Program-made: the position numbers and the translations under genes
Shown: positions 477-4,976 of the stretch, piece by piece
Layout: the number at the start of each line of letters is the position of its first letter
Numbering within the stretch: the stretch's first letter is position 1
The notes under the pieces: model-generated
Database searches by the model: none
Told to the model about the DNA's origin: nothing
Seen by the model: the letters and a program-made list of their open reading frames with translations, nothing else
Source: a virus
Lineage: Duplodnaviria > Heunggongvirae > Uroviricota > Caudoviricetes
Length of the DNA stretch: 4,976 bases
Strand: one strand, 5' to 3'
IMG/VR virus record: IMGVR_UViG_2693429680_000009

Positions 477-502
477 AAAAAAAAGGCCCGCAAAAGCGAG
501 CC
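477..502 (-). terminator. Rho-independent terminator just 3' of tRNA-Arg (minus strand)
   Basis: Minus-strand hairpin GGCTCGC-TTTT-GCGGGCC (7-bp stem, one mismatch) followed by eight T (plus-strand A-run 477-484). Confidence 0.7.
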
Positions 503-516
503 AGGGAAAATAAGTG

Positions 517-805: not shown

Positions 806-832
806 AATAAAAAACCCGCTCGGCGGCGGGTT
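806..832 (-). terminator. tR'-like rho-independent terminator between the Q-type gene and the tRNAs
   Basis: Minus-strand hairpin AACCCGCCGCCGAGCGGGTT (stem CCCGC/GCGGG) followed by TTTTTTATT, about 40-65 nt downstream of the predicted late promoter. Confidence 0.65.
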
Positions 833-871
833 GTAGAAACTCTTCTAACGTCAGGCATAAAACGCCCATAG

Positions 872-1726
872 TTATGACGAATTTACCACAGATTCCGGAA
901 AAATCAACCTAGTTACCTTTTTTAACTGCCGCTCAGCCCATGCTTCTTCAATATCAAACCGAGTCACCAGCGCATCATAGAATTTCTTAACTGTTTTTTC
1001 CCATGACGCGCGTGTTATCTGGTTTGTCACCTCGCATATAGCATTAAATGCCTCCGTTGATGGTAGTCTTTCATAGCCACGACCACCACAACGCTGGCAG
1101 TCTCTGATAACAGGCATACCACGTTTTACCGACTCTTCACGATGAATGGCGACACCACGCCCACGGCAATCCTTACAGGCGGTGGAAACCTCACCCTTTC
1201 CGCCACACTCCGGACAGGCAACTTTTACCACCTCCCTGACTTTTTTCCATTCTTCCCAGTAAGACGGATACACACCTTTCGTACACTTTGCCCATACCGG
1301 CGGCTTACCATCCGGATACTGGATCTTGTTTGTAAAAACCTCGCTTTCAATAAATTTTTTTCCGTGACAGCAGGGGCACTGTTTTTTGCTCGCCGCGCTA
1401 CGGGCATAATCTTCAAACGCATACGAAGCCATAATACGCATCACTGCCGGTTTTATTTCTGCCGGGAGTTTTCTTAACGCCGCCACGCGATCACACCGAC
1501 TGAGTGCATATTCTGTCAGCAATTCTGTTGCCCGCTCTCTGTCATTCATACTAATGCCCATTTTCCCAAGGAACGCAGAAACCCCCATCTCAGCCCGATT
1601 CTGTGTCATGCCCTGCGCGGCCATCACATCAGTGATACTCAGCGCATCTTTCGACGTTGAGGCCGATGCATCAGTCAGGCCGGGGGATTTTGGGGAGTAG
1701 TATTTCGGTAAATCTTCCAGTTTCAT
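872..1726 (-). CDS. Q-type late-gene antitermination protein (284 aa, multiple CxxC zinc-finger-like motifs)
   Basis: Long ORF with CPCC, CPEC...CKDC and CQRC motifs. Sits directly downstream of rusA (ATGA overlap at 1723-1726) and directly upstream of a promoter/terminator pair and tRNA genes, the canonical lambdoid Q position. Family call is by context and recollection, not a search. Confidence 0.7.
   Translation of the reverse strand: MKLEDLPKYYSPKSPGLTDASASTSKDALSITDVMAAQGMTQNRAEMGVSAFLGKMGISMNDRERATELLTEYALSRCDRVAALRKLPAEIKPAVMRIMASYAFEDYARSAASKKQCPCCHGKKFIESEVFTNKIQYPDGKPPVWAKCTKGVYPSYWEEWKKVREVVKVACPECGGKGEVSTACKDCRGRGVAIHREESVKRGMPVIRDCQRCGGRGYERLPSTEAFNAICEVTNQITRASWEKTVKKFYDALVTRFDIEEAWAERQLKKVTRLIFPESVVNSS
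880..907 (-). promoter_or_regulatory. Putative late promoter (pR'-like) embedded in the last codons of the Q-type gene
   Basis: Minus strand: TTGATT (-35, plus 902-907), 16-bp spacer ending TGG (extended -10 TG), TAAATT (-10, plus 880-885). Predicted start near 873, reading toward the terminator at 806-832 and the tRNAs. Confidence 0.45.
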
Positions 1727-3739: not shown

Positions 3740-3895
3740 TTACTCCTCAGGTTCGTAAGCTGTGAAGACAGCGACCTCCGTCTGGCCGGTTCGAATTCGT
3801 ACCTCGCAGAGGTCTTTCCTCGTTACCAGTGCCGTCACTATGACGGTTAAACAGATGACGATCAGGGCGATTAACATCGCCTTTTGCTGCTTCAT
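3740..3895 (-). CDS. hokD: Hok/Gef-family type I toxin (51 aa), HokD/RelF-like
   Basis: Translation MKQQKAMLIALIVICLTVIVTALVTRKDLCEVRIRTGQTEVAVFTAYEPEE: single transmembrane helix and conserved Hok C-terminal region; matches HokD/RelF as I recall it. RBS AAGGAG 7 nt upstream of the ATG at 3895. Confidence 0.9.
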   Translation of the reverse strand: MKQQKAMLIALIVICLTVIVTALVTRKDLCEVRIRTGQTEVAVFTAYEPEE

Positions 3896-3952
3896 AGCCT
3901 GCTTCTCCTTGCCTTTCGGCACGTAAGAGGCTAACCTAGATTTGCCGTTCAT
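3740..3952 (-). CDS. mok-like leader reading frame (70 codons), in-frame N-terminal extension of hok
   Basis: ATG at 3952 preceded by GAGG; the frame runs through the hok start. The 19-codon extension MNGKSRLASYVPKGKEKQA resembles the layout of chromosomal mok/hok pairs as I recall them. Confidence 0.55.
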   Translation of the reverse strand: MNGKSRLASYVPKGKEKQAMKQQKAMLIALIVICLTVIVTALVTRKDLCEVRIRTGQTEVAVFTAYEPEE

Positions 3953-4030
3953 AGATTGAGCCTCAGATTAATGTTAAGCGTCTTGCCGGACGCGTAATGT
4001 TAACTGGGGCTTTTCTCTATCTGCCTTTTG
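3940..4030 (+). ncRNA. Expected Sok-like antisense RNA region (not resolved)
   Basis: Inferred from hok/sok architecture only: the antisense regulator should be on the plus strand opposite the mok start. The best plus-strand promoter-like match is weak (TTGCCT 3909-3914, TAACCT 3932-3937) and no clean plus-strand terminator was found; a hairpin GCGTC/GACGC lies at 3976-3993. Confidence 0.2.
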
Positions 4031-4071
4031 GTGTTCATGCCTGAGACAGATAGCCTCAAGCACCCGCTGCA

Positions 4072-4705: not shown

Positions 4706-4936
4706 TTAACCCGCAGTGCTTTCAACTGATGAGGGGAACAAAATCTTTTCATCAAACCCTGCATTCATATCATGAACAGCAACACACCAATCCATCGACG
4801 AACGATTATCAAGAGCCTCCATGATTTCATCCATGCGGCGTAGGTCATACAGGTAAATGCTTTTATCGCCAATGGTGTAAAAGCCAATTTTTTTCGGTGA
4901 TGGATGAGGTGTACTGGCAATAGCGGACACTACCAT
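4706..4936 (-). CDS. Hypothetical ORF, 76 aa, whose start codon and first 10 codons lie inside the right inverted repeat
   Basis: ORF from the track. No convincing RBS before the ATG at 4936 or the internal ATGs; its stop sits immediately upstream of the 55-aa ORF's RBS. May be a fragment or have a different true start. Confidence 0.35.
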   Translation of the reverse strand: MVVSAIASTPHPSPKKIGFYTIGDKSIYLYDLRRMDEIMEALDNRSSMDWCVAVHDMNAGFDEKILFPSSVESTAG

Positions 4937-4976
4937 TTGTTCTTTTTTTAAGCAGCCATCTGATGATATTTTTCCC
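4905..4976. repeat. Right copy of the 72-bp perfect terminal inverted repeat
   Basis: Exact reverse complement of 1-72. Confidence 0.95.

Follow-up and report, generated by a model that had tools for sequence, protein, structure and literature searches.

The window, the 4,976-nt stretch of phage DNA that we analyzed, is the nin/Q region of a lambdoid prophage, and its recognizable genes all lie on the minus strand. They include hok with its sok antisense RNA (3740–4065), genes for a DUF968 protein (3162–2104) and RusA (2103–1723), the open reading frame of a Q antiterminator in a 284-residue, stop-loss form (1726–872), a tRNA with anticodon CAT (769–694), tRNA-Arg (TCT; 593–517), and an STnc100-family RNA (440–251). 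The CAT tRNA was called Met by ARAGORN and is annotated as tRNA-Ile (ileZ type) in RefSeq relatives. Segment 806–907, the subject of this analysis, overlaps the 3′ end of Q and carries a predicted late promoter, PR′, and an intrinsic terminator, tR′; the first tRNA begins 37 nt past this terminator, and a second intrinsic terminator (502–477, ΔG –13.8) lies beyond both tRNAs. From the cassette to the end of the window, only the two tRNAs and the STnc100-like RNA are present, with no late lysis genes downstream of tR′ in the window. In the close relatives L001 and L002, holin/endolysin genes are located 2.5–4 kb downstream, and the module sits upstream of holin and lysin genes in phage mEp460_ev081 and E. 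coli 2D. Megablast matched the same region to mEp460_ev081 and to thousands of E. coli chromosomes. In Stx2 phages and phiP27, homology to the tRNA region starts at ~809, directly past the tR′ hairpin, and Q-PR′-tR′ thus behaves as one exchangeable mosaic module.

The Q reading frame matched Pfam PF03589, 'Antitermination protein Q' (E 1.8e-53), which is the lambda Q family and is separate from the Q21 (PF06530) and Q82 (PF06323) families (PMC9388147). Besides PF03589, a Pfam scan of the protein returned just a sub-threshold DnaJ zinc-finger match and no PF06323. BLASTP aligned the protein end to end with lambda Q (4e-41, 32% identity), with ...VTR as the shared terminal residues (in the window Q, those that precede its tail), and the N-terminal sequences MKLEDLPKYYSPKSP of the window Q and MRLESVAKFHSPKSP of lambda Q share the pattern M(K/R)LE...SPKSP. 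The PDB matches (7UBM, 7UBN, 4MO1, and 7UBJ) were all lambda Q, with a phmmer E value of 4.2e-41 to 7UBM. As judged from domain content and homology, the Q gene product is a member of the lambda Q family. It differs from lambda Q by a ~68-residue insertion in the zinc-ribbon 'arm' and, in the allele carried by the window, by an 11-residue C-terminal tail. The canonical protein of this subfamily has 273 residues and ends in ...KKVTR, with R273 encoded by the AGG at 910–908. The extended form is present in annotation: RefSeq lists an identical 855-nt coding sequence in strain YZMc17-1, and the 284-residue protein appears, for example, as WP_072646276.1.

The first-pass annotation had placed a late promoter within the last 12 codons of the Q-type gene, and we re-located its features exactly where it had put them on the minus strand. 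A –35 hexamer, TTGATT (907–902), which aligns with TTGACT of lambda and P22, is separated by a 16-nt spacer, TTTCCGGAATCTGTGG (901–886), from a –10 hexamer, TAAATT (885–880), exactly as in the PR′ promoters of lambda and P22. The TG at 888–887 makes this a true extended –10 element (TGgTAAATT, 888–880). The last 12 codons of the reading frame, from L274 to the TAA stop at 874–872, span 907–872, so the –35 hexamer coincides exactly with codons L274 and I275. Written out, the window reads TTGATT-16-TAAATT-cgtcat-AACTATGGG, and lambda reads TTGACT-17-TAAATT-tgactc-AACGATGGG. We consider TTGATT-16-TGgTAAATT very likely to be PR′, the late promoter that goes with a Q-type antiterminator.

AACTATGGG begins 6 nt past the –10 hexamer, at the position of AACGATGGG in lambda. 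In lambda, AACGAT is a sigma-dependent pause element and is followed by GGG at +7 to +9 (PMC5001585); because the GGG occupies +7 to +9, AACGAT corresponds to +1 to +6. In the P22 annotation, likewise, the late RNA has its 5′ end at the first A of AACGAT. By homology with lambda and P22, transcription from PR′ would start at A873, inside the TAA stop codon of Q, and the pause element AACTAT (+1 to +6) with the following GGG (+7 to +9) would span 873–865 on the minus strand. Lambda spacing predicts a sigma-dependent pause at +16/+17 (858/857). A pause site overlapping the 3′ end of Q, as originally proposed, does not follow from these positions, because only the start of the element (A873) falls inside the stop codon and the predicted pause lies 14–15 nt past the reading frame. 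Across 43 module haplotypes, A2, A5, T6, and the GGG were fixed (one apparent exception proved to be a 1-nt register shift), with three alleles at +3 and four at +4; the T at +4 in the window is an uncommon variant, found in 2 of the 43. Fixed A2, A5, T6, and GGG around variable +3 and +4 positions are what one would expect if sigma reads the hexamer as a –10-like element, which suggests that it serves in this way.

The terminator tR′ comprises the stem AACCCGC/GCGGGTT (832–813, minus strand) and a T tract that extends to 806, with a calculated ΔG of –11.2 kcal/mol. Counted from A873, the stem spans +42 to +61 and the last T is +67, in agreement with the earlier estimate of a first terminator about 40–65 nt from the predicted start. 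From this start and this T-tract end, the terminated leader RNA is therefore predicted to be ~66–68 nt. The brevity of the leader had been singled out as a special feature, but it is the norm of the Q family: the annotated tR′ of P22 spans +31 to +59, and an equivalent hairpin and T tract were present in all 20 of 20 non-lambda relatives, ending between +47 and +67, with unrelated stem sequences. The 194-nt leader of lambda is the outlier in its own Q family.

For comparison, we used loci that encode the Q protein, 16 from GTDB and 80 from IMG/VR, plus six annotated phages. Relatives whose Q proteins are 39–55% identical keep the same order of elements, namely –35, ~17 nt, –10, 5–7 nt, AACGATGGG or a close variant, and a terminator. 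Such relatives include those of Mangrovibacter, Atlantibacter, Scandinavium, Phytobacter, Kosakonia, Buttiauxella, and Entomohabitans, as well as Yersinia phage YeP1, phage PHB10, and the 250-residue QuuQ-type protein of Escherichia and Shigella. We found nothing specific in the literature on PR′ mapping for the 273-residue Q subfamily, including quuQ/ydfT. The promoter spacer TTTCCGGAATCTGTGG was identical in 40 of 43 haplotypes and nearly the same in phage PHB10 (TTTCCCGAATCTGTGG; Q 55% identical) and Erwinia phage 59 (TTTCCCGAAACTGGGG; Q 51% identical). As the spacer recurs in these two phages and the lambda Q-binding element (QBE) is located between –35 and –10 (PMC4914094), we regard it as the candidate QBE of this long-arm subfamily. 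The spacer sequence differs from that of the lambda QBE, and binding of Q at this site is therefore proposed on grounds of conservation. We also considered the spacer palindrome TTCCGGAA as a site for a Q dimer and rejected it; the dyad is not conserved, and relatives carry TTCCCGAA or TTCCGAAA.

Multiple comparisons with known systems bear on this assignment. First, the closest known systems are the lambda one described below and the gene 23/P late (PR′)/qut/t late cassette of P22, whose Q protein likewise belongs to the lambda Q family and which has a TAAATT –10 hexamer, a 6-nt gap, and a pause element (AACGAT) from +1. Its annotated promoter, qut, RNA 5′ nucleotide, and tR′ occupy positions equivalent to those in the window, and, as in the window, its tR′ is very close to the promoter; the terminated P22 RNA is ~60 nt. 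Unlike the window Q, P22 gp23 has 207 residues with a single zinc ribbon; in addition, 42 nt separate its stop codon from the –35 hexamer, no tRNA genes follow its cassette, and its spacer (QBE) reads TTTTGAATAAAGTTGGG where the window has TTTCCGGAATCTGTGG. Second, the lambda Q/PR′/tR′ system (6S RNA) shares the identical –10 hexamer and the 6-nt gap, has AACGAT with GGG at +7 to +9, and has a structurally defined mechanism that involves a QBE between –35 and –10, a sigma-dependent pause, NusA, and a Q nozzle. It differs from the window in its 194-nt leader, its 42-nt gap between stop codon and –35, and its 17-nt spacer without TG at –15/–14, compared with 16 nt and a TG in the window. Third, PR′-tR′ of Stx phages (StxS) likewise combines a late promoter with a nearby terminator to give a short RNA and is constitutive in the lysogen, with ileZ/arg tRNA genes downstream of tR′ as in the window. 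In those phages, however, Q belongs to a different family, RNase E trims a 258-nt leader to 74 nt, and sRNA function has been shown experimentally. Finally, phage 82 PR′ (Q82, PF06323) follows the same logic of QBE, sigma-dependent pause, and terminator with an unrelated protein family, and it has a pause element at about +9 to +14, a GCC discriminator at +15 to +17, and a pause at +25. A GCC after a T-rich hexamer in the window had raised the suspicion of an 82-type PR′; this assignment was rejected, as the window Q is PF03589 rather than PF06323 and the 82 pause positions differ. We treat the resemblance of the window sequence TTTTATGCC (+12 to +20) to 82 as coincidental, because the essential A at hexamer position 2 is absent.

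In sequence terms, the Q homologue, the promoter, the pause element, and the terminator of a lambda-Q-family cassette were all found, and we conclude with high confidence that segment 806–907 of the minus strand is the cis-acting half of such a late-gene cassette, comprising PR′, a candidate QBE, pause element, and tR′. For its operation, we infer promoter activity, a start site, a pause, Q binding, and Q-dependent read-through as follows. RNA polymerase with sigma-70 would start constitutively at A873 from TTGATT-16-TGgTAAATT, and sigma region 2 would then rebind AACTAT and GGG (+1 to +9), holding the polymerase at about +16/+17. Without Q, the polymerase would escape and terminate at the +42 to +67 hairpin, releasing an RNA of ~66–68 nt. 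With Q bound at the promoter spacer, Q and NusA would modify the paused complex, which could then read through tR′, the two tRNA genes, and the 502–477 terminator toward the lysis genes. Overlap of the promoter with the Q frame is secondary, arising from an 8-bp microhomology deletion that leaves the reading frame to stop at the predicted start site.

The terminated ~66–68-nt leader might in addition act in trans as an sRNA in the manner of StxS, a proposal that is compatible with the cassette assignment and that we consider unlikely. Its attraction lies in precedent: the constitutive PR′ of Stx phages yields, from its terminated transcript in lysogens, the Hfq-bound sRNA StxS, which has analogues in lambda 6S RNA and in the short late transcripts of phages P22, 21, and 82 (PMC7547250). 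The predicted window leader would also carry a Rho-independent terminator and a U tail at its 3′ end. Against a trans-acting role, the leader past the pause element shows no conservation outside the close clade, and its minimum-free-energy fold has two small, weak hairpins before tR′, with a z score of –1.3 for the whole leader. We rejected a structured leader, as this z score is just –1.3 and natural variants break the small hairpins without compensation. Searches for a known identity led to two further rejections. Rfam assigned no family at threshold to 806–912; the sole match, Trp_leader, scored 25.7 bits against a gathering score of 41, and we read it as a chance resemblance to a terminator. 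The 66-nt prophage sRNA HnrS/EcOnc10 was considered as well, but the source (PMC13502914) reports neither its sequence nor where it lies with respect to Q, and the leader is not HnrS, because Sakai Sp9 has a different Q (PF06530/DUF1133) and unrelated downstream sequence.

Why the promoter lies inside Q in the window is explained by comparison with close relatives. In these relatives, the sequence ...GTA ACT AGG TAA caagg TTGATT ends a 273-residue Q at VTR, and –35 begins 5 nt past the stop codon. In the window, the sequence is ...GTA ACT AGG TTG ATT..., with 8 bases absent between two AGGT repeats; alignment places the deletion junction at 910–907 (minus strand), where just one AGGT is left of the AGGTAACA/AGGT direct repeat. 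Because this deletion (AGGTaacaAGGT to AGGT) removed the TAA, the reading frame runs 11 extra codons through –35, spacer, and –10, and the promoter encodes a read-through tail, LIFPESVVNSS, followed by a stop (907–872, minus strand). Among the loci that we fetched, the AGGTAACA unit was present in two copies in 69, in one copy in 4 and in the window, and in three copies in one (L039). We surveyed 5,426 complete E. coli genomes and found the junction in 1,235 (~23%); 4 of these (0.3%) align without the 8-nt gap, and 1,231 have the canonical arrangement. Exact-pattern scans of IMG/VR recovered the one-copy form in 6 contigs and the two-copy form in at least 120. Given 4 genomes against 1,231 and 6 contigs against at least 120, the overlap is a rare stop-loss allele and not the architecture of the unit.

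These numbers bear on the idea that the overlap of promoter and Q is a selected design, compact or autoregulatory, in which the Q C-terminus and its binding site are co-encoded or a copy-number switch operates. Some observations lend themselves to such a view. The AGGTAACA unit occurs in one, two, and three copies, and the Q genes that carry the one-copy allele diverge by ~4% and have two downstream contexts, so that the allele must have recurred or spread. Nevertheless, we regard selection for the overlap as very improbable. The one-copy allele is the small minority given above; Q proteins across the family, as in lambda and P22, end in ...VTR and then stop; the distance from stop codon to –35 is free to vary in the family, from 5 to 42 nt; and an 8-bp unit present just two or three times would be a poor substrate for slippage. 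The first-pass annotation had described a compact antitermination unit with its promoter in the regulator gene. The compactness holds, because a qut-type region and a close terminator directly follow PR′, but the placement in coding sequence is no design feature, being the result of a rare 8-bp deletion where 1,231 of 1,235 genomes stop 5 nt before –35. The unit is thus an ordinary member of a known cassette, with the stop-loss allele as its sole peculiarity.

A chance match of the two hexamers, with the true late promoter elsewhere and the 832–806 hairpin just ending the early/Q transcript, is another account. The hexamers alone match at 8 of 12 positions and were unlisted by a generic promoter scan, and read-in transcription would be stopped by any hairpin past Q. 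This account is, in our estimation, highly improbable. TTGAYT-N16-TAAATT occurs once in the window against 0.01 expected occurrences, and the lambda-derived composite TAAATT-N6-AACGATGGG, allowing at most one mismatch, occurs once against 0.00 expected from 200 shuffles. Position and spacing equal those of annotated P late, qut, and +1 in P22, the promoter arrangement is conserved down to 39% Q identity, and between Q and the tRNAs the generic scan found no better sigma-70 match. A sequencing or assembly error as the source of the absent 8 bp, to which the window, as a short contig with a repeat at its end, might be prone, can be given almost no weight, as the same allele recurs with different flanks in the 4 complete E. 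coli genomes and in the 6 IMG/VR contigs, and its occurrence on Q genes 95.6–100% identical to that of the window, in two downstream contexts, indicates that it is real.

The consequences of the allele for Q can be considered in light of lambda. In lambda Q, the final 12 residues refold so as to pack against the flap-tip helix of RNA polymerase and against the Q torus, and substitutions at L202 and T206 abolish antitermination (PMC9388147). Because the lambda C-terminus makes these flap-tip contacts and such substitutions are so damaging, the 11-residue tail could impair the 284-residue Q. A bolder proposal, which we consider improbable, is that the AGGTAACA unit is a rare contingency switch that adds the tail to Q, that the ~67-nt leader is an Hfq-dependent sRNA, or both. 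If this were true, the switch would extend the C-terminus of Q by 11 residues whose codons lie in its own promoter and binding site, antitermination and hence prophage lysis would be attenuated or retuned by the tail, and the upstream A-tract would be shifted relative to –35.

For the cassette as assigned here, the finding has several implications. A promoter inside a regulator gene can be the trivial result of a stop-loss deletion. The module is common in complete E. coli genomes, where it would gate rare-codon tRNAs and lysis genes, and knowing where PR′, the pause element, and tR′ lie aids the annotation of prophage late operons and of short leader RNAs. Finally, the 284-residue allele is a natural C-terminal extension mutant with which the role proposed for the Q C-terminus from the lambda Q cryo-EM structures may be tested.

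Compared with the Q antiterminator of lambda, the Q-family protein of the window has an insertion of ~68 amino acids in its zinc-ribbon arm (~1090-1380 on the minus strand; residues ~117-215), and this arm contains four CxxCxGxG-type motifs (CPCCHGKK, CPECGGKG, CKDCRGRG, and CQRCGGRG) versus two in the lambda protein. The window protein also matched DnaJ_CXXCXGXG with a score of 30.7 bits, slightly below the cutoff of 32.7. These features suggest an extended, two-zinc, DnaJ-like arm, which may account for the differing sequence of the spacer of the predicted late promoter PR', the candidate Q-binding element. Just upstream of the –35 hexamer, where the window has one copy of the 8-bp direct-repeat unit AGGTAACA and two are usual, a single IMG/VR locus (L039) has three copies, and comparison of these sequences thus indicates that the tract has undergone both expansion and contraction.

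The Sp9 prophage of E. coli Sakai (L100) differs in encoding a Q protein of another family (DUF1133/PF06530). After this gene, at 15390-15515 of the locus, promoter-like hexamers are followed by ~70 nt and then by a terminator (gccaccggaaggtggttttttt), an arrangement that could represent the PR' leader of that module. This candidate leader might correspond to HnrS/EcOnc10, a 66-nt sRNA reported in Sp9, Sp10, and Sp12 in a study that gives no sequence for HnrS (PMC13502914).

The ends of the window form a perfect 72-nt inverted repeat (1-72 versus 4905-4976), which also covers the 5' end of a 76-aa ORF at 4706-4936. This terminal repeat is real, as both copies recur in inverted orientation ~6 kb apart in a second IMG/VR contig, L102 (36-107 and 6130-6201), and the contig end is probably the point at which the assembler met the repeat. 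Apart from ~640 extra bases in L102, including a DUF3927-type small ORF region, L102 and the window are 99.9% identical. The extra bases lie between the tRNA-Arg gene and a match to the STnc100 sRNA family (L102 4508-5151 versus window 481-505), a position occupied in the window only by a short terminator segment (502-477). The STnc100 match itself is strong (251-440 on the minus strand; 123.6 bits versus an Rfam cutoff of 47), lies 3' of the tRNA genes, and ends at the 280-262 terminator; a second, weak Rfam match to this family spans 24-212 on the same strand. The late transcript would run across the strong match. Elsewhere in the window, the segment 3650-4065 (minus strand) contains a hok toxin ORF (PF01848) accompanied by its sok antisense RNA (112 bits in Rfam) and, directly downstream, a sub-threshold isrK-like match (25.7 bits versus a cutoff of 50) that terminates in the 3671-3654 terminator.

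Homology to Stx2 phages and phiP27 (88-94%) begins at ~809 in the window, directly past the hairpin of the predicted terminator tR'. By our reading of the sequence, this shared tRNA module contains a promoter-like site on the minus strand (TTGCGG at 807-802, a 17-nt spacer, and TATTAT at 784-779), from which transcription would begin 2-4 nt ahead of the tRNA at 769, so that tRNA expression might not rest on Q read-through alone. This first tRNA (694-769 on the minus strand) has a CAT anticodon and was called Met by ARAGORN; RefSeq labels its homologues tRNA-Ile of the ileZ type, presumably lysidine-modified. Between them, this tRNA and tRNA-Arg(TCT) would read ATA and AGA, both of which are rare codons.
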